Program-made: the position numbers and the translations under genes | Notes under the pieces: generated by a model | What the model was told of the DNA's origin: nothing | What the model saw: only the letters and a program-made list of their open reading frames with translations | Database searches by the model: none | NCBI GenBank assembly: GCA_050950765.1 | Contig: JBMNIF010000002.1 | Coordinates: forward strand, 529,454-593,453 | Length of the DNA stretch: 64,000 nucleotides | Reading direction: 5' to 3' | DNA from: Bdellovibrionota bacterium | Lineage (GTDB): Bacteria > Bdellovibrionota_C > UBA2361 > JAAYZI01 | In this document: positions 3,971-48,447 of the stretch, piece after piece | How the letters are laid out: each line of letters opens with the position of its first letter | How positions within the stretch are numbered: the first letter of the stretch is position 1

Positions 3971-4735
3971 TTAGAGAGAGATCTCCAAGCCGTCAAAAGC
4001 TGCTCTTGTATTTTCAAAGTCCTGTTTAGCAACTGTTTCCGCTACTTTTCTTGAAGCAGCATCAGGATAGTGAGTAGGATTAAAGTGCATCAACACCAAC
4101 TGTTTTGCTCCTGCTTCCTTAGCGATTTTAGCACCATTTTCAGGGCTAAGGTGTGGCCAATCTCCCACCTCCGGTTGTCCGATAGGGTGTGCGCATTCGG
4201 TAAAGAGGAGGTCTGCTCCCTTAGCTAACTTTACACAGTTCTGGCAATAGCCTGTATCTGCGACATAAGAGATAACCTTACCTTCCAATTCAATACGGAT
4301 CCCGATAGTTGGCACTGCATGGCGCAGCGGCTCTACCGTAAAACGAAAGGGGAAGTCTTCTGTCTTAAACGGTGCTTCAAACACCTTTACATCATAAGGG
4401 TATTTTTCAAACTCAACTGAAAAGGGGTATTTAAAGATCTGTTGCAATTCGCTTTTTATCCCGCTCTGCCCGAAGATGGTTAACCCTGCCGAAAAATTAA
4501 ACTTCATTAAAACATTAATGCCGTATATATGATCAAGGTGGGGGTGGCTGATAAAAAGATAGGTGGGAAGGCTCTGATCGCAATACTTTTCCAAGCGTGA
4601 GATGCCGAGTCCAGCATCAAGAACGATAGAAAAACGATCAGTTTTAATAAGAAGAGATGTTGTATTACCAGCAGGAGTATCGTACCAACCGTTAGACCCT
4701 AATACTAAGGCTTGCACCTGAGCCATATTTCTCAC
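3971..4735 (-). CDS. MBL-fold metallo-hydrolase
   Basis: ISHPHLDH (HxHxDH) metallo-beta-lactamase signature, with downstream His/Asp ligand residues. Confidence 0.65.
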   Translation of the reverse strand: MRNMAQVQALVLGSNGWYDTPAGNTTSLLIKTDRFSIVLDAGLGISRLEKYCDQSLPTYLFISHPHLDHIYGINVLMKFNFSAGLTIFGQSGIKSELQQIFKYPFSVEFEKYPYDVKVFEAPFKTEDFPFRFTVEPLRHAVPTIGIRIELEGKVISYVADTGYCQNCVKLAKGADLLFTECAHPIGQPEVGDWPHLSPENGAKIAKEAGAKQLVLMHFNPTHYPDAASRKVAETVAKQDFENTRAAFDGLEISL

Positions 4736-4845: not shown

Positions 4846-5340
4846 TTATCGATCAGGATACCGTTGAGATCTACTCTTATATTTACTACCGTTTCCGAAG
4901 CGTCCACCGGAACTTTTTGCAGGACGTGCTGGATGTTTTTTCTGCGGCTGCGCCAACTGTTCATGCGACGTTAAAACTGCGCTCTGCCTTGATTCATCAA
5001 TAGGGAAGGGTAAGTTACGGGGTTGGGACTCATTCCAGAGGTCTTCTTCAAGTGCAAATTCAATAATTGAAGCGACGTGATCAAGTGGTACAAGTGTAAC
5101 CTTACCTTCCATGCGATGTCCTTCCTTACCCGTGATCTGTTTTCCCCTGACGAACTTAGTATCTGCGATAGTAACGATCTCCGGCTCTGTCATGCCGTAC
5201 CAATGAGAAGATGATTTTGTGTAAAGCATAATAACGGAACCAAGCTTTACTTCACCTTCTTCCGGAGCTGCCTTTGCAACCTTAGCGGCTGTTTTTGTAG
5301 CGGTTTTAGTACCTGTTTTTGCTGTCTTTGCGGCTACCAT
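4846..5340 (-). CDS. Histone H1-like / lysine-alanine-threonine-rich nucleoid-associated protein (putative)
   Basis: N-terminus is AKTAKTGTKTATKTAAKVAKAA (KTA-type basic repeats, as in Hc1/AlgP-like tails). The C-terminus is basic, preceded by a small beta-rich domain. Confidence 0.4.
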   Translation of the reverse strand: MVAAKTAKTGTKTATKTAAKVAKAAPEEGEVKLGSVIMLYTKSSSHWYGMTEPEIVTIADTKFVRGKQITGKEGHRMEGKVTLVPLDHVASIIEFALEEDLWNESQPRNLPFPIDESRQSAVLTSHEQLAQPQKKHPARPAKSSGGRFGNGSKYKSRSQRYPDR

Positions 5341-5479
5341 AATATCTGCCTTATTAAATTATTACTAAATTATCACTATTATTTTTATCATTAAATTTAT
5401 TTCCTCAAGTAGGTAGTGAGGAGTATCAAGATAGGTTTATCGTATAAGAAGTTATTGAAAATTGAAAGATCTTTGAATT

Positions 5480-5605
5480 ATGCTTTTAATCTAATCAATC
5501 TACACCACCTCTTAACGTTTTTTTACAAGGAAAAACATTCCTTTGCTCTGATTATAAGATATCTACTTATAATCGATAAGGTATAGCAGGGAAGGCTCAA
5601 ACTTT
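5480..5605. repeat. Conserved 3'-flank repeat (copy 1) of the tandem paralog cassette; contains a 9-bp perfect palindrome
   Basis: About 105 bp nearly identical to 6793..6925. Palindrome gattataag-N7-cttataatc lies at 5550..5574. Confidence 0.7.
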
Positions 5606-5607
5606 AG

Positions 5608-5640
5608 ATGCGACAGCTGCACTAAGTACAGCCGTCGCAT
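5608..5640 (-). terminator. GC-rich hairpin downstream of paralog gene 1, with no U-tract
   Basis: atgcgacagctg..cagccgtcgcat imperfect inverted repeat, 44 bp past the stop codon. Confidence 0.25.
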
Positions 5641-5683
5641 TTCACATGGTGTAAGAACTTATCTTCCCTGCTACCGTTCCTTG

Positions 5684-6340
5684 TTAGGATTCGCATTCCT
5701 GCTCGAAGTTAGCACACTCCTTTAAGAGAGTTGCAAGCTCCTTAACTACGGAAGGCTTAAGTTTCTTAAGCACTTCTGCATCAATAGTGCGTAGAGCTTT
5801 TAAGATCTTTACAAAAGGCTGCAGTACATCTTCTGCCACCTCTTCCGCAAACTTATTCGCAGAAGTATCTTTGTTGCCGTCTTTAGGAAAAGCTGACGAT
5901 AGCTTTTTTCCGCAATCCATCAAGGATTCGATTTCAGCCGCGAAGCATTCCCCCATATTTAAAGAGGAAAGCTTTTTAAGCAACATAACGAAGTGGCGAA
6001 TACACTCCAGCAAAGCATCTACAACTTTCCTAGTTGAACTATTTGTAGGCGCTGAGAGAGCGTCTAAAATCGTCCCTCTAAAACCTTGTAGTGCTTCTGC
6101 CCACTTCTCAAAAAGTCCATTCAGAAGAACTCCGCCGTCCTTCTCCTTTTTCCCTTTTTTGAGAAAATCGAGTATACCTTGAAGAGCGCTATTCAGCTCT
6201 TTCTGTGTCACGTTCGGATCTTTCGCTTGTTCAATGATCATTGCGATAGAGACTTTGAACCAACAATCACGTTTGGCAATACGTGCAGCTTTGCGCGCAT
6301 CATCATATGCGCTTTGCCAAGGGGGGGTAGTGATGCTCAT
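5684..6340 (-). CDS. Paralog-family protein (copy 1), unknown function
   Basis: Shares NGLFEKW / VNGLFKAM blocks and the C-terminal ...ES stop context with ORF 6990..7733. Strong AGGAGG RBS. Confidence 0.5.
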   Translation of the reverse strand: MSITTPPWQSAYDDARKAARIAKRDCWFKVSIAMIIEQAKDPNVTQKELNSALQGILDFLKKGKKEKDGGVLLNGLFEKWAEALQGFRGTILDALSAPTNSSTRKVVDALLECIRHFVMLLKKLSSLNMGECFAAEIESLMDCGKKLSSAFPKDGNKDTSANKFAEEVAEDVLQPFVKILKALRTIDAEVLKKLKPSVVKELATLLKECANFEQECES

Positions 6341-6439
6341 AAGAGCACCTCCTTTCTATGTTGTAAAACAACCCACAATTTAACTTCGCTCGGTTCGGTA
6401 AACCTAGCAAAGTAGGCAGAAAACCTTCTTTATCAACCT

Positions 6440-6560
6440 TTATCACAACACACGTGAAAAGTTTGATATTCTCCCTGCCTTGATGAGGTTAGGAAAACTC
6501 TAAAACCATCAAGACAGGAGTTATACCCTTTACATCTACCCTTTAAATTGTAAAAAACGG
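6440..6560 (-). promoter_or_regulatory. Conserved structured 5' leader/promoter region of paralog copy 1
   Basis: About 100 bp nearly identical to 7797..7900. Contains the imperfect inverted repeat CCTGTCTTGATGG-N19-CCTCATCAAGGCAGG (gene strand). Confidence 0.5.
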
Positions 6561-6792
6561 ATGCTACTACGTGCTGCTATATGCTATTTACATTAGCAAA
6601 ATAGTACTTTCGTAAATTAGAACACCTTAACGAGATAAGACACTATATTTAAAGCGTCTTTAAACAGTTCCTTATTGTAATCAAGAAAACACCTTTTTTT
6701 CAAGTCAGGAAGGGCTTGAAAGGGCTTACCTTTTATTTTGCCTTAAATATTTTTGATTGCGTAAAAGGGGTATTTTTAAAGGAAAAAAGCAC

Positions 6793-6925
6793 TATGCTTT
6801 TAAGTCATAAGATCTTTTAACGTTTTTTTACAAGGAAAAACATTCCTTTGCTCTGATTATAAGATATCTACTTATAATCGATAAGGTATAGCAGGGAAGG
6901 CTCTCAAACTTTAGTTAGGTGCGGC
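6793..6925. repeat. Conserved 3'-flank repeat (copy 2) of the tandem paralog cassette
   Basis: Matches 5480..5605. Palindrome lies at 6855..6879. Confidence 0.7.
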
Positions 6926-6950
6926 AAGTCACATCTGCAACTTGCCGCAC
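6919..6950 (-). terminator. Perfect 11-bp-stem hairpin downstream of paralog gene 2, with no U-tract
   Basis: gtgcggcaagt-N10-acttgccgcac, located 40 bp past the stop codon. Confidence 0.3.
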
Positions 6951-6989
6951 TTTCCGAAGTGCGAAAACCTCTTCTGCTATCCCTTTTTT

Positions 6990-7733
6990 TTAGGATTCGC
7001 TGGAGTCGTCGTCAGGATCTTCGTAGTCTTCCAATAGATCCTTGAGTCTCGCTTCCGCGTTGCCTGTGGGATCTTCTACCCCATTAGCTTCACGAAGATA
7101 CGCTTCAAGACACAAAACGAAACGAAGCATATCTTCCGAGGCATCTACGAATTTCTTAACTATAGCAGGATCCGCCGTTTTAAACACGCGTTTCTCGCTG
7201 AACAAAGCGCTTAAGAGCCTCTTGAGAGGTTCTACCGTACCTTTTAATTCGGTATCCAGAAGCTTCTTAAGCGAAGTTCCTCCCTGATCGCCTTCGCAGT
7301 TTTCGAAGAAGCTTTTATACAGCTCCCCATGATAATCCAGCAAGCCTTTGATCCTCTTTATTGCACTATTCGTGCAGCCTTCTCTCTCAATTACGATTGA
7401 GAGAGCATAATCGAAGATCTCCAGCACAGCATCTAAGAACTTCTCGACTACTGGAAGAAGGTCAGGCGCATTAAGCGTTTTTTTGTCAGCGAATACAACT
7501 TTCCTGATAATTACGCCGAGCTTCTTCAGCTCTTCCGTCATCGCCTTAAAAAGTCCGTTTACAAGGGCGGTTTCGTTTTCGCTCTTAGCTAACGCTTCGA
7601 GGAAGATTGAAATCAATACTTGCAGAGATTTCGTTAGATCGTACGCAGCTTGAAAAATTCGAGCCTTGTGACACTTACAATTAGGGTCATAAAAACCCTG
7701 CTTTTCGATGCTCATATGAGCACCTCCTTCCAT
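6990..7733 (-). CDS. Paralog-family protein (copy 2), unknown function
   Basis: Paralog of 5684..6340, sharing flanks and internal blocks. Acidic C-terminal tail DPDDDSSES. Confidence 0.5.
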   Translation of the reverse strand: MEGGAHMSIEKQGFYDPNCKCHKARIFQAAYDLTKSLQVLISIFLEALAKSENETALVNGLFKAMTEELKKLGVIIRKVVFADKKTLNAPDLLPVVEKFLDAVLEIFDYALSIVIEREGCTNSAIKRIKGLLDYHGELYKSFFENCEGDQGGTSLKKLLDTELKGTVEPLKRLLSALFSEKRVFKTADPAIVKKFVDASEDMLRFVLCLEAYLREANGVEDPTGNAEARLKDLLEDYEDPDDDSSES

Positions 7734-7796
7734 AAATTACTTCACTCGGTAAACCAAGCAAAGAAGACAGAAAACCTTTCACTTCGGTGAAAGTTT

Positions 7797-7900
7797 AAAG
7801 TTTGATATTCCCTGCCTTGATGAAGTTAGAAAAACTCTAAAGCCATCAAGACAGGAGTTATACCCTTTACATCTACCCTTTAAATTGTAAAAAAACGCAC
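7797..7900 (-). promoter_or_regulatory. Conserved structured 5' leader/promoter region of paralog copy 2
   Basis: Near-identical to 6440..6560. The stem of the inverted repeat is maintained while its loop differs. Confidence 0.5.
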
Positions 7901-8222
7901 ACCCCCTATATATTATCATATCTTAACAAAATAGTGCTTCCGTAAACTAGATAAGTCACCTTATTTGGAACATTTTTTAAAATCTCCTCAACTTATTAAA
8001 TGAGGGAGATCTTTTTTAAGCGCCAAGACCTTGAAAGGATTTACTTTTAAGTGAGTGTTAAATATCTTCTAATTGTGTCAAAATCATACTTTAAAGGAAC
8101 AACGTACGGTCTAAAAACAGACTTTACACCTTCCAGATTGTGATAATTTGAATTATTGAAGAGAGCAAGGCGTGCAGCAACCTACTTCGCTTTTATTTTA
8201 GAGAGATATAAGGATTTTAATT

Positions 8223-9107
8223 ATGGGAACAGAGAGACATATAAAGATCAGGGTCGGCTTAGCTGAAATGTTAAAAGGCGGTGTAATTATGGATGTAGTT
8301 ACTCCGGAACAGGCTAAGATTGCAGAAAATGCCGGTGCTGCTGCCGTGATGGCGTTAGAAAGGGTTCCGGCTGATATTAGGAGAGATGGCGGTGTAGCCA
8401 GAATGGCTTCAATAGACGTTATTGAAGGGATTAAAAGAGTTGTAACTATTCCGGTTATGGCGAAGGTCAGGATCGGTCATTTTGTTGAAGCTCAAGTTTT
8501 GCAAGCCTTAGGGGTGGATTTTATAGATGAAAGCGAGGTGCTAACCCCTGCCGATGATAAATTACACATCGATAAGTTCGCCTTTGATACGCCTTTTGTC
8601 TGCGGCGCTAGAGATTTAGGCGAAGCATTAAGACGTATCAGTGAGGGTGCTGCTATGATTAGAACGAAGGGTGAGGCTGGATCCGGCAACATCGTTGAAG
8701 CAGTGCGACATATGCGTACCGTCATGAGTCAGATTAAAGCGTTAAAAGGCTTAGATGATGCTGAGTTAGTGGTGCGTGCTAAAGAGTTGGGAGCATCATA
8801 CGACCTTCTTAAAATCGTAGCGGATCAGGGGAAACTACCCGTTCCAAACTTTGCAGCGGGAGGAGTGGCAACACCGGCTGACGCCGCTTTGATGATGCAG
8901 CTTGGTGCTGAATCTGTTTTTGTCGGTTCCGGCATCTTTAAATCAGAAGATCCAGAAGCTAGAGCAAAAGCCATTGTAAAAGCCGTAGCACACTATAACG
9001 ATCCGCAAGTATTGTTAGATGTTTCACGTGGATTACGTGATGCTATGCACGGAATTGAGATCTCTACCTTAAAGCCAGAAGAAAAACTTCAAGAGCGAGG
9101 GTGGTAG
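8223..9107 (+). CDS. pdxS: Pyridoxal 5'-phosphate synthase subunit PdxS (Pdx1)
   Basis: Full-length match to the PdxS pattern: [35 protein letters not shown], and a C-terminal GSGIFKS. Confidence 0.9.
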
Positions 9108-13342: not shown

Positions 13343-14758
13343 ATGGGAAAGAAAGCAAAAATACACCCTGATTGGGCAACAAAATATCGAGAGAAAGGAA
13401 AAGAGGTACGTCTTATCAATGGGAGATATTACCTATATAGCTACAGCTATAAGTATGACCCTGAGAGGAAAAGGAGCGTGAAAGTTACTGGTAAATTACT
13501 TGGACGAATTACAGAAGAGGACGGTTTTATACCAAGTGAGAAGAGAAGCCTTGTACCTGCTGTGAATATTAAGTGCAGAGAGTATGGTTTATCTCAATTT
13601 ATCCTCAATCAAAAAACAATTATTGAAAGACTTCGGTGTTATTTTCCAGATAAGTGGAAGGCTATTTTGCTGATGTCATACAGCAGGATCAAACATTGCT
13701 CTCCTATTAAACGCATGAATGATGATTTTGAAAACAGTATGTTGAGTGAAAAACTTAATTTTCTTCTTAATAAGAAAGCTATTCCGAATATTTTGCAATC
13801 GATTGGGAAAGATGAATTTGCTCGTTCTGAATATATGAAGAGTTTTATTCATGGAAAAGATTTTTTGTTAATTGATTCTACATTTCTTAGAACATCTATG
13901 AGAAAGTCGAGTCTTGCTAAAGGAGGATATAATAAAGACCATTTTTGGGAAACGCAGGCGAGTTTGCTTTATATTTACTCTAAAAAATTGCAACAACCAG
14001 TCTATTATAGGTTATTGGCTGGGAATATAAGAGATGTAAAAGCTCTATCTTTAACTATCCAAGAATCAGAAATTGGTGATGCTACTATTATTGCAGATAA
14101 GGGTTTCTATTCAGAGTCTAACGTTAAAGATCTTATAGAGAATAAACTTAGCTTTGTTATTCCATTGCGTAGAAATAGCTCTCTTATAGACTATGATGGA
14201 ATAGAAACAAGCAGGAACGTTATTGAATATAATAAAACGTACTTAAGATATAAAAAATATAAGATTGGGAATGGATTTATATATCTGTTTAGAGACCCGT
14301 TTTTAGCAGGTGAAGAGGAAAATAACTTAGTTTCATTAACAATATCTCATCCAGAAAAATACAATTTAACAGATGTTGATTTAAAAAAAGTGAGGCTAGG
14401 AACTGTTGCATTCTTTTCAAATTTGGACTCATCCGCAGAAGAAATATACACGTTATACAAAATGCGACTATCTATTGAACAATCTTTTGATACGTTAAAA
14501 ACTGTTTTAAAAGCAGATGCTTCATATATGAGTGATGATGATAAATTTCAGGGATGGATGTTCGTGAATCACATAGCAATACAGTGGAGCTATGAAATAT
14601 TAAAAACAATAAAAAAACATAAACTTTCGACTTCAATATCATTAGAAGATGCTATCAGAAGGTTATCTGAAATTAAAAAAGTTAGGCTTGGGGACTCTTG
14701 GTATTTAGCCGAGCAAACTAAAGCAGAGCTAAAAATAGCCGAACTGTTACTTACTTAA
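13343..14758 (+). CDS. IS4/IS1634-like DDE transposase
   Basis: 471 aa. Has an ADKGFYSESN (DDE D2-like) region and the overall N-terminal architecture of IS1634-type transposases. Sits as an isolated gene between pilin and NUDIX genes. Terminal inverted repeats could not be defined by eye. Confidence 0.5.
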   Translation: MGKKAKIHPDWATKYREKGKEVRLINGRYYLYSYSYKYDPERKRSVKVTGKLLGRITEEDGFIPSEKRSLVPAVNIKCREYGLSQFILNQKTIIERLRCYFPDKWKAILLMSYSRIKHCSPIKRMNDDFENSMLSEKLNFLLNKKAIPNILQSIGKDEFARSEYMKSFIHGKDFLLIDSTFLRTSMRKSSLAKGGYNKDHFWETQASLLYIYSKKLQQPVYYRLLAGNIRDVKALSLTIQESEIGDATIIADKGFYSESNVKDLIENKLSFVIPLRRNSSLIDYDGIETSRNVIEYNKTYLRYKKYKIGNGFIYLFRDPFLAGEEENNLVSLTISHPEKYNLTDVDLKKVRLGTVAFFSNLDSSAEEIYTLYKMRLSIEQSFDTLKTVLKADASYMSDDDKFQGWMFVNHIAIQWSYEILKTIKKHKLSTSISLEDAIRRLSEIKKVRLGDSWYLAEQTKAELKIAELLLT

Positions 14759-20852: not shown

Positions 20853-22478
20853 CTAGAGATAGCCTCTTAGGTTTTCCATAACGGAGGTGATGTTTTGGAA
20901 ATCTACATATTCACGCTGCACCTTAAGCTCTTGCGGTAGCACCTCCTGTTTAGAACCTTTATTATCAAGTCTAATAACGAAGAGGGATATTTTATCGGCG
21001 CACTTTTCATATTCATCTATAAGATCCTGTATACCATCCCCCTTTGTGATCGGAGTGTCCGTTATAACGATTACAGAACGGTTAAACTTAGCCTCTACTG
21101 CACAAACTTCCTTTAGCGCTTGAGTGATAGCACGACCTCCGCCGCTTGGCGCTCCTATATCAGCACGATCTGTTTGCAGACCTTTACCTTTACTTTTACT
21201 TTTTACCTTACTTTTTTGCATCAGATGCAGAGCGTCACTTACCTTACTTTTATCTCCGACCTCAATCACACTATTTTTAGGAGACCCACCGTCTGCAACA
21301 ATCAGGTGTAAAACATCTTCATTTTTAGGAGTAAGCCAAAACTTTCCCTCCTCATTTTTCGCAATATCTGCGAAGGCTTCTTTTAATTCAGCACTAAAAC
21401 TATCTCTTAGCCCCATCTCCGCATTTAAAACAAATACTGCATAGCTCGGCTTTCTTAAAAACTCCTGATACCGTCCTAAAAACCTATTTAATTGAAACTT
21501 ATTTAAGCCGCTCCGCGTTGAAGCCTTTTGCAAGGGGCTTAAACCTCGCCAACTTTCAGAATCGTAATACTTACCGAAAGGAGTTCTGAAAAATGCACCT
21601 GCTAACCTTTTTTGTGCAGTCTTTCCCGTTAAGTAACGTTTAATATCTCTCACAAGTTTTTGTCTCTCCTTATCGCCTTTATGGAGATAAACAAGTTGTG
21701 CACTTATCCCATAAGGAGCTTGTGTAAAGTAGAGTACATCTCTCGGGATGAGCCCTTCTTGACGCATCTTTTTATTAAATCTAGCTGCCATGCGTTCTGT
21801 TACAATAACAGCATCATAGTTGGGGTCTTCAAAAACCCCTCTAAAATCAAGGGGATTAGGAGAGATAAAAGCTGCATTAGCTATAAAACGTTTTAAACTT
21901 TTTCTTAATTCTAACGGATTTTTTTCCGTTCCTTTTTTTTCTGCTAGTTTTAGAACTCCCAGATAAGTAGATAACCCGACGGGATGGTGCGTTGGCGTTA
22001 AAAAAGCGTATTTTAAACCCCCTTTTAAAGTTTCCTCAAAAAAAGCTTCCGCCTTTAAGGTACGATGAAATCCGTCTTGAAACGGCTTCCCCTTATCCTT
22101 ATTAAACGCCACAACTATGGGGCTAAACATAATCTGTTTTATCTCAAGAGCAAGTCTTGTCGCTGCGGAAAGTTGTAGCCACTCTATGGAGGGCATCAGC
22201 ACGATATCTGGATTTTGCAAAAGGTCTTCCTGCTGTAACGTTTGTAAGATCTCCGTGCTGGAGAGGTAGCGCACCCTAAAATCGTATTTATGATCCTTAC
22301 GTTGCTTAGCGTAGATAAATTCAGTAATTGTATTTCCCAACTCGTGCAGATCTGGTGTGGCGATTATCTCAAAGGTGGGACGTTTTATTACGTTATCACT
22401 TTGAAGGTGTCTAAAGACAATTCCGAGTGACACGATACAGATTATACATAAGGTTAAAAAAAGGAGCTTCTGTCTCAT
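20853..22478 (-). CDS. Secreted or membrane-anchored protein with possible C-terminal vWA-like region
   Basis: N-terminal signal/anchor. C-terminal SVIVITDTPITKGDG resembles the vWA TDG block. Last gene in the same orientation as the Tad-like operon. Confidence 0.35.
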   Translation of the reverse strand: MRQKLLFLTLCIICIVSLGIVFRHLQSDNVIKRPTFEIIATPDLHELGNTITEFIYAKQRKDHKYDFRVRYLSSTEILQTLQQEDLLQNPDIVLMPSIEWLQLSAATRLALEIKQIMFSPIVVAFNKDKGKPFQDGFHRTLKAEAFFEETLKGGLKYAFLTPTHHPVGLSTYLGVLKLAEKKGTEKNPLELRKSLKRFIANAAFISPNPLDFRGVFEDPNYDAVIVTERMAARFNKKMRQEGLIPRDVLYFTQAPYGISAQLVYLHKGDKERQKLVRDIKRYLTGKTAQKRLAGAFFRTPFGKYYDSESWRGLSPLQKASTRSGLNKFQLNRFLGRYQEFLRKPSYAVFVLNAEMGLRDSFSAELKEAFADIAKNEEGKFWLTPKNEDVLHLIVADGGSPKNSVIEVGDKSKVSDALHLMQKSKVKSKSKGKGLQTDRADIGAPSGGGRAITQALKEVCAVEAKFNRSVIVITDTPITKGDGIQDLIDEYEKCADKISLFVIRLDNKGSKQEVLPQELKVQREYVDFQNITSVMENLRGYL

Positions 22479-22540
22479 AACAGAATGATTCTATTTAAGT
22501 GCCCCTCACGTCAAGAGAGAGAATATCTAACAAAGCATAA

Positions 22541-22650
22541 TCTTCTTTAAGAACTTATAAAGGTGCCCCTACCTGTGTCAATAAGGGAGGCACTACCTGT
22601 ATCAACTGTAAACTTATAAAGGTGCCGCCCGCATAGATTGGTAAAGATAT
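22541..22650. repeat. Intergenic degenerate duplicate of the 3' coding end of the tadG-like gene
   Basis: cctgtgtcaataagggaggcactacctgtatcaactgtaaacttataaaggtgccgc...catagattggta matches 22858..22945 inside the gene at about 85%. Confidence 0.65.
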
Positions 22651-22698
22651 GGTAGAGATAGAGATCGGTAAAAATAGAGGTGGGGTATTTAACTCCCC

Positions 22699-24600
22699 CT
22701 ACTCAATCTCAACTATCTGATACGGATTAACCCCCACTACATAATCATCCATAGCATCTTTAATCTGCTGGGCTTGCGTTCTGCAATCCGTAGTTACCAA
22801 CTGACCGTAACGTGTTCGATCACATTGATTTTTGCGCCATTCAGCTCCATCACAGATCTCCCCCACCTGTGTTAGTAAGGGAGCCCAGACACCACCTGTA
22901 TCAACTGCAAACTTATAAAGGTGCCGCATAGATTGGTAGAAAGGCTTAGAGGCGGTTTTGTTATTAAATACACCTTCACAATCACTACCAAAATCAGAAC
23001 ACCCTGAGCTCCCTCTTACAAAATCATATATACCGGTTTTATTTTTTGAAGACCTAAACTCAGCATCAGTAAAACACGTCCCCGTCTCAGTATTTTCTAA
23101 AGCAACCCAGTGTGGTCCCACATCCTTACCAACAGGAAAGATGTGTAGAGGGATATTGTTGGCTACCATAGTATTAACTACCCTCTGCAATTCATTCATG
23201 CCGTTTACATAGTAATTATAATCGCTTGCATTGCAATGTACTCCTGTAGTATCTCCATCCCAACAAGTTTGTAAACCATCAGTAAAAAGCACCACTGCAT
23301 TAGAAACGTTTTCAGAAGCCCCCTCACTATCAGCAAGTAACCTCTGAACCGCCTCTTCAAGCGCCTGCTTTATATGTGTTTGCCCCCTATTCGCTTGCGG
23401 ACGTTTATTTATATCTACACTATCAAACATAGGGATTAAACCGTACCTAACAGCACGCTCTACACCAGCACTTACATTTGAAAAAGGATCACGCGTATTA
23501 ATATCATCACTATCAAAGATACAGCCCTCTTCATCTGTATCTCCATCAGAGTAATCGGTAAAATTTATTAGTTGATCTAACTTATCGGTTAAGACCGTCA
23601 TCCTTGGCCAGAAGAGACCGTTTGAAAACATTATAACTCCCGCCTTATCTCCCGCTACGCTACGCGCCTTAAAAGCTTTTAAGGCGTTATGAATACCGTC
23701 ATAGATATCAGCTAACGGTTGAGGTCTCCCTTTAGTGCCTACTCCCCTATAAGCATAAACATGGAAAGACTCTCTACTGCCAAAGTTATATCTTTCATCT
23801 CCGATCTCTCTAGTAAATTTATCTTTACACGGATCAGCTGTGCTTGGGCAAGGGTGGAGATCTCGAAGCTCGTTACAAGTAAAATTATTATAATCGTCAT
23901 CACCAAGTACAAACTTCTGTTTGTAGTGCTTTGTATCTTCTCCAAAAGAAGTAAGCCTAAAAGTATAACAAGTATCACTTATCACATAATCAGGGCAATT
24001 ATACTCAAAATTAAAGGTATCTTGTGTAGTAGAGAAAGAGGTATCAACTAAAAAATAGATATGCCTCGGCACCACCATAGCCGTAGCTTTTACATAGGGG
24101 GCGATCTCTTTTATACCGAAGAACCTTCCAAAAGACATCTCCGTATCTCGTACATAGTTACCTGAGATACGTACGGCGTTAGGAGTGGTGCAATCTCCTG
24201 TCTCATCCGGAGTAAAAACCTGCTTTCCTAAGCTCTCGTCTCTCTTCCAACACCCCAACTCTAAACGAAAGAGGCTTTCTTCACCTAAACCAACTGCCCT
24301 TTGAGCAGACGCAGCATCTTCACTTTTAGGATCGTTATCATTTAATAACTTATTTACAGCCTCTACGGCTGCCTCTTTTGCCGCTTCTTTAGTTTCGTTA
24401 AGTGCCCTCGCTGAAACGTACTCTTCTAAAGCTCTTAAAGTTGCAAGTTTGGTATTTTGTCTCGCTTTTTCAGCGTCGTTCATCATACGACTAACATCGA
24501 TAACTATGGCAGCGAGACCAAAAATAACTATCATCGAGATACAGAAAAGAACCATAAAACCGCCGTTTTCTCGCTTCTTCATTAGCACCTTCCTTTTCAC
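22699..24600 (-). CDS. TadG-like pseudopilin with vWA domain
   Basis: N-terminus FMVLFCISMIVIFGLAAIVIDVSRMMNDAEKARQ is a TadE/G-like hydrophobic segment. MIDAS motif FLVDTSFST (DxSxS). Confidence 0.6.
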   Translation of the reverse strand: MKRKVLMKKRENGGFMVLFCISMIVIFGLAAIVIDVSRMMNDAEKARQNTKLATLRALEEYVSARALNETKEAAKEAAVEAVNKLLNDNDPKSEDAASAQRAVGLGEESLFRLELGCWKRDESLGKQVFTPDETGDCTTPNAVRISGNYVRDTEMSFGRFFGIKEIAPYVKATAMVVPRHIYFLVDTSFSTTQDTFNFEYNCPDYVISDTCYTFRLTSFGEDTKHYKQKFVLGDDDYNNFTCNELRDLHPCPSTADPCKDKFTREIGDERYNFGSRESFHVYAYRGVGTKGRPQPLADIYDGIHNALKAFKARSVAGDKAGVIMFSNGLFWPRMTVLTDKLDQLINFTDYSDGDTDEEGCIFDSDDINTRDPFSNVSAGVERAVRYGLIPMFDSVDINKRPQANRGQTHIKQALEEAVQRLLADSEGASENVSNAVVLFTDGLQTCWDGDTTGVHCNASDYNYYVNGMNELQRVVNTMVANNIPLHIFPVGKDVGPHWVALENTETGTCFTDAEFRSSKNKTGIYDFVRGSSGCSDFGSDCEGVFNNKTASKPFYQSMRHLYKFAVDTGGVWAPLLTQVGEICDGAEWRKNQCDRTRYGQLVTTDCRTQAQQIKDAMDDYVVGVNPYQIVEIE

Positions 24601-24786: not shown

Positions 24787-27700
24787 TTAACCTTGCTTGC
24801 TACGCACAACCCACTCACTTGTCGTTTCCATATAGTCACACCCAGCTATCTTTGTAATATCTCCGCAATTTTCGATCTCAGATTCTGTCATACATACTTT
24901 TTTCTCACCTATGGTAACTTCTTTTTTACCACTTTCACAAACGCACACACACTCACCTTTACTATTTCTTGAAGCAACAAGGCTTTGATGCCCACATTGA
25001 ATTTTTGTCTCATCACATCCGCAAGCGCACTCATCGGCGTAATACCTTTCATCTTCTCCACAGCCGATATTTATTTTAGAATTACCCTTAAGATTTCCAT
25101 TATCATCGTACTTACAGACACAAGTATTGTCTTCTACAATCTCGTTCTCGCCGCAACTTACACACTCTTCATTTTGCATTACAAACCCTGAATTGCAGAT
25201 ACAATCACCTACTTCTTCATCCCATACTGAGTTTTCAGTACACGTCTGACATTCACAATAAGAACCATTCATAACGAGGTGTTGGTTCTCTCCTTGACAG
25301 AAATCTCCTAGGTTTGCAGCACCTGCCCCGTCTTTTTTCTTAGCACGTCCTGTTAATGAGTCTCTATCATAGATACAAGCACACTGCGTATATATAGATG
25401 CAGAACTACTTCCACTATGCGGCACAAGTTCTGTCCCATCAGGGCAAAAATCACAACTACAATTAGTCGTATCTATTAAATATTGCCCCTGCTCATGACA
25501 CTTTTCTTCACTAGTTGTTATATCATCATCACCATCAATCCCAGTTGTACAGTCGCAACCAGTACCATCTTCATTTCCAACAAAAACTGTGCCATCTTCT
25601 GCGCAATCAACACATTCACAAGATGCTTCCTTAAATTGTTTACCTTCATGAGCGCACTTTTCCTTTACAAGCGCTTGAACTTCTTCACTACACTCACAAT
25701 TTAGTGACTTGCTATCAGTTGGTGTTTGAGAATCTTCAAGGGTGTTCGGAGTGCCCGCTCTATAATTACCGTCACAGATACACCCCGACCCATCTTCAGA
25801 TAATCTTTGATTGGGATTAGTAGTGCACGTCACACACGCACACTCTGCATAATCAAAGTATTCATCGTCGTTGTCACATTCTTCTTCGAAGTGTTTTCCA
25901 CCTTCTTCACTATACTTACACTCTTCACAGTTTAACTTTGTTATATCTGAAGACTCACCTAACTTATGATAAGAATCGCACGCACAAGCTTCTACTCCGA
26001 CCCCTCCAGTACTTGTAGTATTCTCTCCGCAAGAGAGGCAGTCACACTTTTCATAATCGAAGTATGTACCTTCAGGACATTTAGTACCATCACTACCAAA
26101 TGCAGCGCCGTCTACGTCTGAAGCATATTTACAAACGCAATCTCCTATCTCTTCACCTTCAGTAGATATAGTTTGATATGGAGTACAACAACTGCACTGA
26201 GTTATACTAAAGTTTCTTGAGTCCTTAATACAGGCTTCGTATTTGGTTTTAGTCTCTCCCTCTGTTATATTACAGGAACAGGTGCTACCTTTTACCGCTA
26301 CACTATCTTCACATTTACAATAAGCAGCGTTACCTTCTCTAATAAACGTACCACCTGTTTTTTCGCATAACTCTTCAAGCGTAGCAATATCAACATTATT
26401 AGGTCCAGCACCGGAGCTATTGCCCTTACCGTCGCCACCGCCGCTACCACCTTTTCCGCACTTTGCAGAATCTGTACAGGTACAACTTAAGCCGTCACCT
26501 TTATAGCCGTTAGTAGTATCACAGACACAAGTTGTACCATTAAAAGTTGCTCCCGTAGCAGTACAACACTTCTCCTCCTTGCAGGAACACGATCCCTTTT
26601 CACTGTAATAACCTTGTGAGTTGTCGCAGACGCAAGTATGGTTACCTTGTGCATCAGTACCTGCCGCATAACCTTTCTTAGAATCACAAACACAGTTCCC
26701 ATTAGCATCTTGGAAGGTATTGGCTATACAAATACACCCTGCTTCTGTTGCTTCTCTAAAATCTTGATTTCGACAAACACAGTTATCTGTCCCTGCTTCA
26801 AACTCATTACTGACACAGGTGCAACTACCATTTATCAGTGAACGATTGTTTTCACAGACACAGTTTCCGCCGTATGCCTTAAAGTATTTATTCTCATCAC
26901 AGACACAGATACCGTCTTTCCTTATATAATTATTACGGCAGACGCAGTTAGGCAGCTTAACAGAAACGCCCTCTATTGTCTCAGTTTTATAACTCAATAC
27001 CTCATTATTCGAACAACTTCCTATACCACCACAATCACAAGTATCTTCGCTAAATGGATTATAACCATGATCCTTACACCAAGCAGAGATCTCTCTTTTT
27101 TGAGCTTCTGTATAATTACATTCACACCTTTCAGTAGCAGAATTGTAAGTTTTATTTCTATCCCTACATTCGCAATCGCAGGTAGCTTTATTAAACTTTA
27201 AACCTCGATCACTACACCATTTTTGCACTGCCGTTTCATTACAAGAGCCGCCACCGCCGCCACCTGCTAGATCTCCAGCAGCTACTCCACCTCCTGTAAT
27301 ACCATCAGAGATATCACAGCTACAGATCTCAGTGTAATACGCCACCTTTTTATCGTAGCAGTATTGTTTAGAATTTGGTGTATTAGCCTCCTCATCATCA
27401 CACTCACAGGCACAGGTATCTGTATTTAACTTACCAAGCCCGTTCTTTGTTATACAATCTTCAGGGGTAAGGGGGCACTCACAAACCATACTCCCCTCTT
27501 CCTCTGTAACTACAAAGTTCTCAGGACAGACACACTCATAATACCCTTTTTTAGTCTCTTTTACCGTCCAAGCTCCACTTCCACAAGAATCACAGGAGCA
27601 GGTCTCTGCGTTAAAGATAGAAGCTCCTTGCCTAGTACAATCATCTTGAGAATCCCTATATTTAGGACATTGACATTCACAATAATACTTCGTCTCTTTT

Positions 27701-29475
27701 TTTTCATTTATAGTTATAGTTTTAGATTTTTTACTAGGTACCTTATTCCCCTTACATCCATTAGGATCACAACTAAGCTCACATGTATATTTATCGTTAT
27801 TTTTAATAAGGTGTGCTTGGAGCATTTTATCTCCATCTAATCCACCTAGCTTTGAAACATCACATTCGCACATACAGTTATCTTGATTAACTTTCTGATG
27901 GTCAGGATCGTAGCAGTTACTATTCTCTTTAAAATATTCTTTTAAAGTATATATTTTGTAACAATCACAACTATCACGTGCCGTTCTTCCCTTTTTAGCT
28001 GGATCGCTACAAGCACAATATAAAGATGAAGAGTTAGCACTTCTCTCAGTGCCTTCAGGACAATCGACACAAGTCCAGTGCCCATCGATTACTTGTACAG
28101 TTTGATTATCTTCACAATCACAATCACAAGTTGGAATTTGGCTTGAAGGTGTCAAGCTTTTACAAAGCCCTTTTTCACATTCGCACCATTCATTTCCTGC
28201 CCCATCACTCTTTTTAACAGAGCCTCGATTACATATTTGACAATTACCGCTGGCATTTTTTACATAATTATCATTACAAACACACTCTAAACCATCTTCA
28301 GAGGCGTGCGCATTAGATCCGCACTGTACGCACTGACAGGCACTATTAACTACTGTTTTACACCCTTCAAAAGTTGCCTCATCAGTAGGTTTAAGATCTG
28401 TTGGTGTAGGATTAGCACTATTGTCGCAACAGATACTATCACCAACCTCCTTCCAAACTAGCTTTGAATAATCGCAGACACAACTGTTATCTTCTGCGCT
28501 ATACTCTTGATTCTCCGCACAGTTATTACAGTAACAGCCGCCACCTGTCTCGTAAGTGCCGACTACGCCTGCACACACAAAGCCACTCCCCTCGATATCA
28601 TAGAGGCATCGACATCCACTCCCTTCTTCATCTGTATACAACACCTCATTTGGTCCACAATTTGTTGTATTATTTACACATGCACAGACTCCACGCTCAT
28701 CTCTAATAGCGACCTGATAGGCGGTATTACAATTAATCAGTTCAGGCTTACAAAGACACTTTCCATCTTCATCCTTTTCACACTCTAATAACGGCGGCAT
28801 ATTTGATTTCGTACTAAGCTCTCTATAAGCAGAAGCTTTAGCTGTAAAAACAAAATCAGGTATCCACGGTGAAAGTGTTTTATACTTGGTGTGGACTGTC
28901 ACTTCTATTGGGATTCTAGTTAGACCGTCTCTTAACGATTTCGATTCCTCAGTAGCTTCACCCTCAAGAGCGTACTTAGCTCCTTGAACGGGGAGTTTAA
29001 TCTCTATTATTCCTTTATCTGTTGCTTTTCCTTGCTCGTCATCTCTTACAGCTAATAGCTGCACAACCCCTTTGTCATTAACCTTTCTCTCTTCAATCTC
29101 TTTATCGTTTAGAGTTCCGATTAAAAAACCCTCCATATACTTATAAGCACGGTCTCTAATGCTTATCATCGCAGGTGCATTTTCTTGAATACCAACTTCA
29201 CTACACTCTTCCTGACCAGTATTCATATTCACTACGCAAAGATCTTTGACCACATCTTCAAGATCCGGCACAACAGCTGCCAGTTGTGCAGCCTGTTCTG
29301 CTGCATTTTGGATGGTGGTCTTAGCATAAAGCGCAAATGAAAAGTCTATAATTCCTAAAATTAGGATTAGGAATATCGGTATTCCTATGGCGAACTCAAC
29401 CATCGTTGCACCACAATTTCTTACGTTGTTATTTTTAATAGTAGTCATAATAATTACCTCATTAAATACCAACAC
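24787..29475 (-). CDS. Giant (1562 aa) TadE-like pseudopilin-N-terminus protein made of cysteine-rich CxC repeats
   Basis: N-terminus GATMVEFAIGIPIFLILILGIIDFSFALY (TadE-like). About 1300 aa of repeating C-x-C-x(10-16)-C units (CVCDENKY.., CVCENN.., CTCVSN.., CVCRNQ..). Gly-rich linkers (GGGGGGS). Start overlaps the stop of the upstream tadE-like gene. Confidence 0.6.
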   Translation of the reverse strand: MLVFNEVIIMTTIKNNNVRNCGATMVEFAIGIPIFLILILGIIDFSFALYAKTTIQNAAEQAAQLAAVVPDLEDVVKDLCVVNMNTGQEECSEVGIQENAPAMISIRDRAYKYMEGFLIGTLNDKEIEERKVNDKGVVQLLAVRDDEQGKATDKGIIEIKLPVQGAKYALEGEATEESKSLRDGLTRIPIEVTVHTKYKTLSPWIPDFVFTAKASAYRELSTKSNMPPLLECEKDEDGKCLCKPELINCNTAYQVAIRDERGVCACVNNTTNCGPNEVLYTDEEGSGCRCLYDIEGSGFVCAGVVGTYETGGGCYCNNCAENQEYSAEDNSCVCDYSKLVWKEVGDSICCDNSANPTPTDLKPTDEATFEGCKTVVNSACQCVQCGSNAHASEDGLECVCNDNYVKNASGNCQICNRGSVKKSDGAGNEWCECEKGLCKSLTPSSQIPTCDCDCEDNQTVQVIDGHWTCVDCPEGTERSANSSSLYCACSDPAKKGRTARDSCDCYKIYTLKEYFKENSNCYDPDHQKVNQDNCMCECDVSKLGGLDGDKMLQAHLIKNNDKYTCELSCDPNGCKGNKVPSKKSKTITINEKKETKYYCECQCPKYRDSQDDCTRQGASIFNAETCSCDSCGSGAWTVKETKKGYYECVCPENFVVTEEEGSMVCECPLTPEDCITKNGLGKLNTDTCACECDDEEANTPNSKQYCYDKKVAYYTEICSCDISDGITGGGVAAGDLAGGGGGGSCNETAVQKWCSDRGLKFNKATCDCECRDRNKTYNSATERCECNYTEAQKREISAWCKDHGYNPFSEDTCDCGGIGSCSNNEVLSYKTETIEGVSVKLPNCVCRNNYIRKDGICVCDENKYFKAYGGNCVCENNRSLINGSCTCVSNEFEAGTDNCVCRNQDFREATEAGCICIANTFQDANGNCVCDSKKGYAAGTDAQGNHTCVCDNSQGYYSEKGSCSCKEEKCCTATGATFNGTTCVCDTTNGYKGDGLSCTCTDSAKCGKGGSGGGDGKGNSSGAGPNNVDIATLEELCEKTGGTFIREGNAAYCKCEDSVAVKGSTCSCNITEGETKTKYEACIKDSRNFSITQCSCCTPYQTISTEGEEIGDCVCKYASDVDGAAFGSDGTKCPEGTYFDYEKCDCLSCGENTTSTGGVGVEACACDSYHKLGESSDITKLNCEECKYSEEGGKHFEEECDNDDEYFDYAECACVTCTTNPNQRLSEDGSGCICDGNYRAGTPNTLEDSQTPTDSKSLNCECSEEVQALVKEKCAHEGKQFKEASCECVDCAEDGTVFVGNEDGTGCDCTTGIDGDDDITTSEEKCHEQGQYLIDTTNCSCDFCPDGTELVPHSGSSSASIYTQCACIYDRDSLTGRAKKKDGAGAANLGDFCQGENQHLVMNGSYCECQTCTENSVWDEEVGDCICNSGFVMQNEECVSCGENEIVEDNTCVCKYDDNGNLKGNSKINIGCGEDERYYADECACGCDETKIQCGHQSLVASRNSKGECVCVCESGKKEVTIGEKKVCMTESEIENCGDITKIAGCDYMETTSEWVVRSKQG

Positions 29476-29478
29476 TTC

Positions 29479-30147
29479 CTAGTTTCTAATCAGATATGGA
29501 GTAGTCTCCGTTATAGTAACGTCAGCCTTACCTCCTATAAACACCGCGAAATTAAAGATACTTTTATACGGCACCGAGACCTCTACCTTCACACGAGTGA
29601 CTGAGGAAACTGAATAAACAACATCCTCTGTATTATCATTTTTTTCAGCACACGGTTTGTACTCATCGCCACACAAGGTTTCAACTTTTCTAATAGATCC
29701 CTCTGGCTCAATATAATTCGAATATCCCGCCCATCTAGGCGGTTTTTGTCTTCTTAAAAGTGAATTAACCCTATCTAATACAGCGTACTGCGCAACGTTA
29801 CTGCCATCTATAACAGAAGAACGCTCTCCATTCCCCACCTCCGTAGCATACCCCTTTCCGATACTCGGTCTCGAAGCAGCAAACCTAGCACCTTCATAAG
29901 CGATACTTTTTAATTTGAAGTATTCGTTCAAATAACAGGAGACTTCAAAGATGCCGACCAATATCAGTAGCATCACAGGAGCAACCAGCGCTAACTCTAC
30001 TAAAACCAATCCACGCTCTTTTATATTTTTCCTGCTCGTGCTTTTAGAAGAGGGGAAAAGGTGAGATAACCCTCTGTAAAATTTTGTCCTTTCTGTTTTT
30101 TCTGAAGCACTAAGCATAATTAAACCGAAAAAACTTATAACAACCAC
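29479..30147 (-). CDS. TadE-like pseudopilin
   Basis: ERGLVLVELALVAPVMLLILVGIFEVSCYL matches the TadE N-terminal consensus. First gene of the operon. Has an extra hydrophobic N-terminal extension. Confidence 0.6.
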   Translation of the reverse strand: MVVISFFGLIMLSASEKTERTKFYRGLSHLFPSSKSTSRKNIKERGLVLVELALVAPVMLLILVGIFEVSCYLNEYFKLKSIAYEGARFAASRPSIGKGYATEVGNGERSSVIDGSNVAQYAVLDRVNSLLRRQKPPRWAGYSNYIEPEGSIRKVETLCGDEYKPCAEKNDNTEDVVYSVSSVTRVKVEVSVPYKSIFNFAVFIGGKADVTITETTPYLIRN

Positions 30148-39900: not shown

Positions 39901-39971
39901 ATAAGAACGGTAAACTTGCTAAGAACACGAAGTGGAGCGATTCTAAAACTGTTACAGTTTCGAAAAAGTAG
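36957..39971 (+). CDS. Secreted RCC1-repeat protein with MopE-like cysteine repeats and lysine-rich C-terminal tail
   Basis: Signal peptide. About 7 RCC1 blades (YCWG.N..GQLG). Four near-identical 56-aa repeats CNNIDDDCDGVTDTDAAGYGAACNNGLLGACYKTGTMSVCDGGVLTCSAPNVEPTTEVA (CxxxDDDCDG metal-binding-type motif). Basic K-rich C-terminus. Confidence 0.7.
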   Translation: MQKFTLRTLKLVVLFSFFCGSLAGAETFLPTTQNYNYNFNILNNLSTPPTAQNFNIKNFSLFSTLKKSLPFRREFFGNPPPYLAAQVTSISMGYFHACAIVGGRLYCWGLNSSGQLGINSTDTTTTPTLTYDPSTTSFTGLLGGQGVSSVSANGYNTCAINADGKLYCWGENDSGQVGNGTLGFDCKYPVLIEDPSTLSCSGLLGSETVIAVSVGASPNDTPEGESSGRTHVCAINADDKLYCWGDNTFGQLGDGQSGGSLPRLVGDSGTLNGRGVVQVSAGYSFTCAINTESLLFCWGKNDYGQLGIYSTENTTSPTPIYNADPEKVGGLGTGNDPAVMSVSAGTTHTCAIESGYLFCWGDGSYGALGNGDGTDRSFPVAINKGSPPGQLDGSIVLSTSSGSGFTCAINEIGEIYCWGKNTDKKLLGISGVDTRFPQLVAGSDSNPNPGLLGTYTVNAVSCSNSGPSYQSICGINSQHNLYCWGDSNFGQLGQNSTTTNTTPTQTLFNEDSTCNGIDDDGDGLTDEDYVSVSCNTGLHGLCAAGTTSCNAGSVVCNQTNSPTTEIACNNIDDDCDGITDTDAAGYGAACNNGLLGACYKTGTMSVCDGGVLTCSAPNVEPTTEVACNNIDDDCDGVTDTDAAGYGAACNNGLLGACYKTGTMSVCDGGVLTCSAPNVEPTTEVACNNIDDDCDGVTDTDAAGYGDACNNGLLGACYKTGTMSVCDGGVLTCSAPNVEPTTEVACNNIDDDCDGVTDTDAAGYGAACNNGLLGACYKTGTMTLCEGGVLTCSAPDADPVSEICGNGIDDDCDGETDEDCNAETPTPTPPAPFVDACPTDPNKTEAGVCGCGIADSDHNNNGIIDCLDPKWPTTKIDSIVTPNTKPVTPRVDVVKKKVVVYMQRFKRAELLKKLRNVVNYAKKNKRKKITFRYEVVLRQVSTKTTYKSITKKKIQSRISKRNKVIFKKQRQGTYKIKYRVKIYKNGKLAKNTKWSDSKTVTVSKK
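38630..39300. repeat. Four near-identical 168-bp tandem repeats inside the RCC1 protein gene
   Basis: Copies differ by only a few nucleotides at the DNA level. Confidence 0.8.
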
Positions 39972-47996: not shown

Positions 47997-48085
47997 TGGC
48001 GGAGAGAGGGGGATTCGAACCCCCGGTAGGGGTAACCTACACACGCTTTCCAAGCGTGCGCCTTCAGCCACTCGGCCATCTCTCC
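47997..48085 (-). tRNA. tRNA-Ser (anticodon GGA)
   Basis: Reverse complement gives GGAGAGATGGCCGAGTGG..., a long variable arm, anticodon loop TTGGAAA and an encoded CCA. Confidence 0.8.
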
Positions 48086-48169
48086 ATTAAGACGGTAACG
48101 GTGCAACTCTATCGACGAGCACCTTTTTTAAAAACAGATAAAAAACCATCTTTCAAGGTGTAAAGAGAA

Positions 48170-48256
48170 CGGAGAGGAAGAGATTCGAACTCTCGGTACA
48201 GTTTCCCGTACACACACTTAGCAGGCGTGCGCCTTCAGCCACTCGGCCACCTCTCC
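48170..48256 (-). tRNA. tRNA-Ser (anticodon GCT)
   Basis: Reverse complement gives GGAGAGGTGGCCGAGTGG..., anticodon loop CTGCTAA and a long variable arm. Confidence 0.8.
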
Positions 48257-48360
48257 AAATCAGAATACCTTTCTCTCAAAAAAGGCTCTTCTTGGTTTTT
48301 ATCACTTTTTTATAGCATAAAAAATAATATGTTTAATAATATCAATTGATAAACAACAAT

Positions 48361-48447
48361 CGGTGGGAAAGGGATTCGAACCCCCGGACCCCTTTCGAGA
48401 TCTCTGGTTTTCAAGACCAGCGCCTTCAACCACTCGGCCATCCCACC
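48361..48447 (-). tRNA. tRNA-Ser (anticodon TGA)
   Basis: Reverse complement gives GGTGGGATGGCCGAGTGG..., anticodon loop CTTGAAA and a long variable arm. Confidence 0.8.

Follow-up and report, generated by a model that had tools for sequence, protein, structure and literature searches.

A strain-variable pair of orphan genes beside pdxS in a Bdellovibrionota bacterium, with near-identical flanks probably shaped by recombination

Two neighbouring genes in a metagenome-assembled genome (MAG) of the Bdellovibrionota encode proteins that have little sequence in common, while the non-coding DNA on both sides of them is almost the same, which raises the question of what kept these flanks alike when the genes between them drifted apart. 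The genes, here called A and B, lie on the minus strand at positions 5440-8120 of a 64-kb window, which is the whole stretch of DNA analysed, and form two head-to-tail units of 1.31-1.34 kb each (5440-6760 and 6761-8120). Gene A is identical to the NCBI MAG protein ACOX2O_04490 of a Bdellovibrionota bacterium and gene B to ACOX2O_04495. In the sense direction each unit comprises a distal spacer (U2), an upstream block (U1), a 5' untranslated region (UTR), the coding sequence, a GC-rich hairpin and a downstream block (D1) (Table 1). The explanation favoured here, with moderate confidence, is a strain-variable, lineage-restricted orphan locus beside pdxS, shaped by flank recombination and allele turnover around a shared structured leader. 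Conserved flanks around a scrambled core are, as judged from the sequence comparisons, likely to be mainly a product of recombination, an ordinary mechanism, and the locus is a modest curiosity, not a new kind of system.

Aligned unit against unit in slices of 50 columns (gaps counted), the two conserved blocks give 50/50 and 44-45/50 identical columns, the coding sequence about 16-25/50 and U2 about 27-33/50. The two proteins share 25 % identity over 170 amino acids (aa; pairwise E=1e-5), compared with three mismatches in U1 and one in D1, each with a 2-nt indel. The first-pass annotation of this DNA had described tandem, diverged paralogs with flanks better conserved than their coding sequences, and in this it was right; the flank ranges it proposed need small shifts of their boundaries, and the outer parts of the downstream ones (5480-5508 and 6793-6813) are only partly similar. 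Both U1 and D1 occur exactly twice in the window, with zero occurrences expected by chance. Small conserved open reading frames (ORFs) were not found in the spacers.

The matching locus of a close sister strain (contigs L004-L006, L019, L023 and L024), with flanks 96.7-98.6 % identical to the window, carries pdxS, a single gene of the family, a 160-aa gene and an MBL-fold gene. The protein encoded by this single gene, P0003, represents a third allele, C. The copy number is thus one (C) in the sister strain versus two (A and B) in the window, and the 1.3 kb missing from the sister strain correspond to unit A, bounded by D1 direct repeats. Upstream of the gene the strains differ by 18 mismatches in 1460 nt (98.6 % identity). 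This identity is lost abruptly at the ribosome-binding site and start codon. In the 5' part the sequences either cannot be aligned or agree at 71 %, with large indels that keep the frame; the identity of B and C then recovers to 91.5 % in the 3' part and to about 97 % downstream of the gene. Nei-Gojobori estimates of synonymous (dS) and non-synonymous (dN) divergence give a dS of 0.275 and a dN of 0.282 for B versus C (dN/dS about 1.0), with dS values of 0.63, 0.29, 0.45, 0.10 and 0.04 from 5' to 3', whereas the adjacent pdxS shows a dS of 0.056 and a dN of 0 between the strains. For A versus B, dS is 1.76 and hence saturated, dN is 0.83 and dN/dS 0.47. All of the indels, at least six, are in frame, and the reading frames are open over 218-332 codons.

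The behaviour of D1 is instructive in this comparison. Against its single mismatch within the genome, each copy shows five mismatches and a 3-nt indel relative to the D1 of the sister strain, in which two bases of the left arm of a palindrome are lost and a second small hairpin is altered. As far as the sequences tell, D1 can vary from strain to strain and does so more rapidly than the DNA around it. Because the copies are alike within the genome and diverged between strains, their identity is a sign of a recent event, duplication or gene conversion, and not of strong constraint. Of the pattern of conserved regulation and divergent coding claimed by the first-pass annotation, the fast evolution of intact frames stands, but the 3' element can no longer be taken for a constrained regulatory site.

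The alleles themselves are stable. Six samples carry the window-type locus at 100 % identity, and copies of the C allele from several unrelated projects are at most two amino acids apart; since alleles are alike in independent samples, they are not continuously mutated. More distant relatives, recognised by orthologs of the 164-aa gene downstream of D1 (51-72 % identity), keep the pair of 164-aa and MBL-fold genes, with lpxB or an AAA_14 ATPase gene upstream and no D1. Family and flanks are, by these comparisons, confined to a narrow lineage. The 164-aa orthologs lack D1, and therefore D1 belongs to the variable-gene unit; a role of D1 as promoter of the 164-aa gene was rejected since the orthologs in distant relatives have unrelated upstream DNA. 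Contig L002, from Joint Genome Institute (JGI) dataset 3300060823, ends at window position 6709, which falls in the weakly conserved spacer of unit A instead of a high-identity repeat, and L013, a separate contig from the same sample, begins at window position 6769; the sample may contain a mixture of strains or of copy numbers.

The rate contrast narrows the possible histories. Under simple relaxed selection in place dS should match the local background, which the elevated dS rules out, and simple decay is excluded because the frames are intact instead of broken. What the sequences leave is either that old or imported alleles were recombined in via the conserved flanks or that the coding region mutates faster than its surroundings, and continuous hypermutation is unlikely because the alleles are stable across samples, indels are many and no template copy exists in the window. 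In the favoured explanation the repeated flanks would recombine by unequal crossing-over or gene conversion, which would shift the copy number and keep the flanks alike, and the coding cores would be old or imported alleles under little sequence constraint with their frames kept open. Each gene would form its own expression unit, in the order shared promoter region with direct repeat, 5' leader, helical protein, GC-rich 3' hairpin and D1. The leader, about 150-190 nt long, would begin at or close to a hairpin (P1) and continue with a pyrimidine-rich island; near its end, a 7-bp hairpin would bury the start codon along with the Shine-Dalgarno edge. Most likely it would limit translation initiation and set mRNA stability equally for both paralogs, and either the direct repeat or the P1 palindrome could serve as the site for a shared regulator.

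The U1 block reads, in sense order, an A/T tract, the direct repeat TAAAGGGTA-GATG-TAAAGGGTA, TAAC, hairpin P1 and ATATCAAACTTT. The arrangement TAAAGGGTA-N4-TAAAGGGTA is present at only two sites in the window, directly upstream of P1 in both units, and overlaps the best candidates for -35 and -10 elements; it is a candidate transcription-factor site on sequence grounds. The best promoter match found by eye is TTTAAA-16-TATAAC, and neither the sigma-28 nor the sigma-54 consensus, compared by eye with U1, fits. P1 consists of 14 pairs, a 2x2 internal loop and 4-5 more pairs, and folds stably, as the first-pass annotation had expected of the leader, with -22.6 kcal/mol (z-score, z, -3.9) in A and -24.3 kcal/mol (z -5.6) in B. 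The hairpin is about 5 kcal/mol more stable on the sense strand (for A, -22.6 versus -17.9 kcal/mol on the antisense strand) because of two G.U pairs, an asymmetry that speaks mildly for a structure in RNA as against a DNA palindrome bound by protein. A and B differ at three positions within P1, all in the internal or the apical loop, one of which gives B an additional apical A-U pair. The compensatory-style conservation formerly read into this stem thus does not stand. Among A, B and the sister-strain gene, 2-3 positions of about 100 nt in U1 differ in each pairwise comparison, a near-identity compatible with constraint, conversion or both.

Between P1 and the gene lies the 5' UTR island, AAGGUUUUCUGCC...GGUUUACCGA in unit A, for which two pairing partners are predicted, the ribosome-binding region and, alternatively, the 3' arm of P1. 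The start-codon hairpin, absent from the first-pass description, was found in all three genes; in A its 7-bp stem takes in codons 1-3 as well as the last two G of the Shine-Dalgarno sequence. Between the strains it shows one two-sided change (U.A to C.G) and one one-sided change (G.U to G.C), and 21/21 cells of the alignment stay paired. This hairpin accounts for codons 1-3 being the only conserved 5' codons of A and B, and the non-synonymous changes in codons 2-3 appear tied to RNA structure. A search of positions 5300-8300 with Rfam 15 gave nothing at the gathering thresholds; a permissive scan returned one match, to the aspC noncoding RNA motif at 6779-6848 on the minus strand, whose 31 bits (E=0.031) fall short of the threshold of 100 and which was regarded as chance.

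Downstream of the coding sequences, the GC-rich hairpins of A and B occupy the same position and have unrelated sequences. Instead of a U-tract they are followed by AUCUAAAG and CUAACUAA, and a scan for Rho-independent terminators made no call there. The hairpin of A is likely a terminator or 3' stabiliser to judge by its fold, and both may be 3' stabilisers or terminators independent of a U-tract. D1 begins 0-5 nt after the hairpin and contains the palindrome GATTATAAG-N7-CTTATAATC. The leader inverted repeat, the 3' palindrome and the copy-specific GC hairpins of the first-pass annotation are thus all present. In addition, the 5' end of D1 (AAAGTTTGAG..CCTTCCCTGC) and the 3' end of U1 (GCAGGGA..ATATCAAACTTT) form an imperfect inverted repeat about 20 nt long, and the inner edges of U1 and D1 coincide with it (CAAACTTT, AAAGTTTG). 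It beats shuffled sequences in all but 6/2000 cases for B and 80/2000 for A, a moderate significance judged after the fact. The repeat may mean a cassette boundary, a 5'-3' RNA pairing, a mirrored promoter or chance.

Gene B was listed among the ORFs as 6990-7733, but most likely starts at 7715, because AAGGAGGTGCTCnTATGAGCATC, which spans ribosome-binding site and start, is common to genes A and B. Except for Met-Ser-Ile the N-termini of A and B differ, and the sole obvious common motif is L(L/V)NGLF (LLNGLFEKW in A, LVNGLFKAM in B). An exhaustive HMMER profile search of 1.84 billion representatives confined the family to A, B and P0003 (332 aa), and two word-indexed protein searches found no members beyond these; a further profile match, P0004, is a spurious repeat protein. 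P0003 is 53 % identical to B and acidic (isoelectric point, pI, 5.3), with an acidic tail like that of B. No match of A or B to a known family or defence system was obtained in Pfam, NCBIfam, PADLOC, PHROGs or the PDB sequences. Scans of genome, metagenome and viral contig collections for U1 and D1 gave no matches, these collections being without the source MAG and its JGI samples. The larger family or regulon that the first-pass annotation had envisaged thus shrinks, within the DNA and proteins searched, to two copies in 64 kb and three proteins. Nor do the sequences bear out its secreted or surface proteins, for they have no signal peptide, lipobox or membrane helix and no hydrophobic run of at least 8 residues. 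The best AlphaFold2 model, that of A, is a helical bundle with a predicted local distance difference test score of 62.8 that resembles only generic four-helix-bundle repeats. A, B and P0003 are predicted to be soluble all-helical proteins of a generic helical-bundle fold.

An old tandem duplication, in which purifying selection alone keeps the cis elements identical while the proteins diversify and no recombination takes place, was the model of the first-pass annotation and is now unlikely. A structured leader whose promoter-proximal part is invariant in all three units would suit it, and a U2 decayed to about 55-65 % is what an old duplication should leave; it fails to account for the damaged and diverged D1 of the sister strain next to in-genome copies that differ at one base, and for a coding dS between strains 5-10 times that of the flanks, which selection on the protein does not explain. 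Decidedly unlikely, too, is that dispensable genes are decaying under relaxed selection after duplication and that the conserved flanks are merely the youngest parts. The B/C dN/dS of about 1.0, the lack of a detected homolog outside the lineage and the absence of the gene at the locus in more distant relatives point that way, but frames open over their whole length, indels that are all multiples of three, a ribosome-binding site and start hairpin kept with compensatory change, a dS far above the local background and an A/B dN/dS of 0.47 (though with saturated dS) do not. It is barely credible that a diversity-generating retroelement or the like hypermutates the coding region in a targeted way: dS and dN are both raised with a sharp onset at the start codon, yet neither a reverse transcriptase nor a template repeat is present in the window, where A, B and C match only themselves in tblastn and blastn, the alleles are nearly identical across independent samples, and large indels with variation over the whole gene contrast with the substitutions in a short 3' region which such retroelements give.

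Two further readings turn on the inverted repeat. In one, leader and coding core form an exchangeable or invertible gene cassette between inverted repeats of about 20 bp (TAAAGTTTGA..TTCCCTGC) which a site-specific recombinase swaps, inverts or excises. The repeat does exceed shuffled sequence, the inner edges of the conserved blocks fall on it, and D1 on the plus strand (AAGGTATAGCAGGGAAGGCTCTCAAACTTTAG) resembles by eye a U1 without its hairpin. However, the significance of the repeat is moderate and post hoc, the 5 kb or so to the left and to the right contain no recombinase gene (an IS4-type transposase at 13343-14758 being the closest gene of a mobile element), about 12 assembled contigs are all collinear in one orientation with none inverted, conserved islands lie within the putative cassette, and direct D1 repeats, not inverted ones, delimit the unit that the sister strain lacks. 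The cassette is therefore quite improbable, and the same holds for its strongest form, an undescribed kind of cassette with a variable core between constant promoter and 3' modules, swapped, duplicated or lost by a dedicated recombination mechanism; if it were true, a predatory-bacterium lineage would get a strain-specific helical-bundle repertoire under one fixed control circuit. In the other reading, which is highly doubtful, a costly protein is controlled by antisense or long-range RNA as in hok/sok: a helix between the 5' leader (GCAGGGA..CAAACUUU) and the 3' block (AAAGUUUG..UCCCUGC) would lock the full-length mRNA, or a convergent promoter in D1 would produce a short antisense RNA ending at the GC hairpin. 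There is a 7+8 bp complementarity between 5' and 3' ends in both units, the start codon and Shine-Dalgarno sequence are sequestered, TATAAT occurs on both strands of D1, and UUUC follows the GC hairpins on the antisense strand. Against this, the minimum-free-energy folds of the whole mRNAs contain 0 and 3 long-range pairs and skip the 5'-3' helix, the promoter scan passes nothing in D1, and the proteins are soluble helical bundles of 218-332 aa, not small membrane toxins.

Some results weigh against flank recombination and allele turnover around a structured leader as well. Donor alleles were not found in the protein searches, nor silent donor cassettes in the window, so that allele import is deduced from the elevated dS only. 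The decay of U2 fits two histories, an old duplication with U1 and D1 homogenised or a recent duplicate with its interior replaced. The sigma-70 scan of U1 called no promoter, and if TATAAC is a real -10 element the transcript would start a few bases inside the 5' arm of P1, which would still leave a terminal hairpin of about 8+4 bp. Covariation is absent from P1, as the 18 pairs common to A, B and the sister-strain gene are invariant; to judge by the alignment, this does not contradict a conserved stem. In the start-codon hairpin, 174/500 shuffles equal the covariation of the three sequences, which is not statistically significant, and the compensatory change is only suggestive.

Several described systems resemble parts of this locus. 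The staphylococcal agr specificity groups and the Helicobacter bab paralogs are loci kept polymorphic by flank recombination, with known functions and many sampled alleles. The likeness lies in sharp identity breaks at the core edges, a raised dS that fits old alleles, and conversion or unequal crossing-over between paralog flanks; the difference is that only three alleles are known here. Hairpins at the 5' terminus protect mRNA from decay that depends on the 5' end, and such stem-loop stabilisers were reportedly described for the E. coli ompA and papA leaders by Emory, Bouvet and Belasco in 1992 and by Bouvet and Belasco in 1992 (both as cited in PMC3997798). P1 is likewise a stable hairpin, and the 5' end of the transcript is predicted to lie at it or very close by, but the best -10 element puts the start inside the 5' arm. 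With RNA thermometers and other forms of start-site occlusion the locus shares the stem over the Shine-Dalgarno edge and start codon in three genes; however, the start hairpin is without ROSE or fourU signatures or a match in Rfam, and -10 to -11 kcal/mol are not obviously temperature-labile.

The closest described pattern is the erp (OspE/F-related) family of Borrelia burgdorferi with its 'upstream homology box', in which promoter-operator DNA and first codons are conserved and the coding sequence is diverse and recombining (PMC10016077). A and B similarly share a near-identical upstream block, and U1 is as close to that of the sister-strain gene. In contrast, there are many erp genes, located on cp32 prophages, and their products are surface lipoproteins that share a conserved leader peptide, whereas here two chromosomal copies have an extra conserved 3' block, no known regulator and no signal peptide or lipobox, so that the proteins are not lipoproteins of the erp kind. 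An integron attC cassette was rejected because CAAACTTT and AAAGTTTG misfit the RYYYAAC...GTTRRRY core by eye and no tyrosine recombinase was among the ORFs scanned. A target of a diversity-generating retroelement was likewise rejected, given the many indels and no second copy of any coding part in the window. Tested as an inverton, the locus showed inverted repeats of moderate significance, a single orientation in all assemblies and no recombinase nearby.

If recombining flanks and allele turnover are the correct explanation, the locus would be a compact natural example of repeated regulatory flanks that recombine, so that the controls stay identical while the coding cores are replaced or diverge, and it would show such a locus changing copy number between strains about 98 % identical. 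It yields a candidate for a new cis-regulatory leader, with direct-repeat operator, 5' hairpin and start-codon hairpin. Furthermore, it yields an orphan helical-bundle family which may act in antagonistic interactions of a Bdellovibrionota lineage. It is also a reminder that near-identical non-coding DNA between paralogs is not by itself evidence of constraint, as the sister-strain D1 shows. With three alleles from one lineage, no larger question is opened or settled.

Table 1 Features of the two units and their surroundings (positions in the window unless a contig is named)
Feature	Position	Strand	Remarks
pdxS	8223-9107		divergently transcribed from the gene B side; spacer U2 of unit B lies between
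U2 of unit B	7895-8120	-	spacer towards pdxS; 98.6 % identical between strains; about 55-65 % identical to the unit A copy
U1 of unit B	7797-7894	-	contains the direct repeat and hairpin P1
Direct repeat of unit B	7861-7882		
Hairpin P1 of unit B	7810-7856		inverted repeat 7811-7855
Start-codon hairpin of B	7707-7724	-	GGUGCUC-AUAU-GAGCAUC; -10.2 kcal/mol
Gene B	6990-7715	-	241 aa, most likely start MSIEK; predicted all-helical, acidic pI 4.9, acidic C-terminal tail
GC-rich hairpin after gene B	6920-6950	-	14-bp stem; 96-nt fold -36.0 kcal/mol, z -5.2
D1 of unit B	6814-6914	-	
Palindrome in D1 of unit B	6855-6879		
U1/D1 inverted repeat of unit B	7796-7815 with 6891-6913		
U2 of unit A	6558-6790	-	decayed copy of the gene B-pdxS spacer (7895-8120), with indels
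U1 of unit A	6458-6557	-	compared with 7797-7894
Direct repeat of unit A	6524-6545		
Hairpin P1 of unit A	6473-6519		inverted repeat 6474-6518
5' UTR island of A	6395-6427	-	pyrimidine-rich; 91 % identical to 7746-7778 in unit B
Start-codon hairpin of A	6332-6349	-	GGUGCUC-UUAU-GAGCAUC; -10.9 to -11.2 kcal/mol
Gene A	5684-6340	-	ORF, 218 aa; predicted all-helical orphan protein, pI 8.1
GC-rich hairpin after gene A	5608-5640	-	15-bp stem; 95-nt fold -33.4 kcal/mol, z -4.5
D1 of unit A	5509-5607	-	small AAGGAA/TTCCTT hairpin; compared with 6814-6914
Palindrome in D1 of unit A	5550-5574		
U1/D1 inverted repeat of unit A	6458-6478 with 5586-5605		
Start-codon hairpin of C	L004 1455-1470		GGUGCC-CAUG-GGCACC; -10 to -11 kcal/mol range

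The remaining window is ordinary chromosome with pdxS, inositol monophosphatase, recJ, leuA-like, pyruvate:ferredoxin oxidoreductase, Tad pilus and tRNA genes. The 164-aa protein next to unit A (4846-5340) has a histone-H1-like N-terminus rich in Ala, Lys and Thr and belongs to no known family. Its gene is directly followed by the MBL-fold gene (3971-4735; RNase Z or Apyc1-like cyclic-nucleotide phosphodiesterase) in relatives down to 62 % identity (L007-L010), which suggests that the two form a conserved two-gene module. The IS4-type transposase mentioned above, a DDE enzyme (PF01609), is the only mobile-element gene found near the locus.

Farther away, a 1562-aa protein with an N-terminal TadE/TadG-like domain (24787-30147) adjoins a second TadE-like gene and two VWA-domain proteins (20853-24600) and looks like an unusually large Tad/Flp pilus-associated protein. 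A 1004-aa protein at 36957-39971 has at least six RCC1 repeats and a MopE-like metal-binding motif. Three clustered tRNA-Ser genes (GGA, GCT and TGA) on the minus strand at 47997-48805 adjoin a tRNA-Arg gene (ACG) on the plus strand. Finally, a 403-aa protein (445-1656) matches the archaeal Hvo_1808-family surface-protein model NF038145 with E=7e-43, below the curated cut-off, and the precomputed Pfam annotation of its gene in contigs L001 and L002 is DUF8575.

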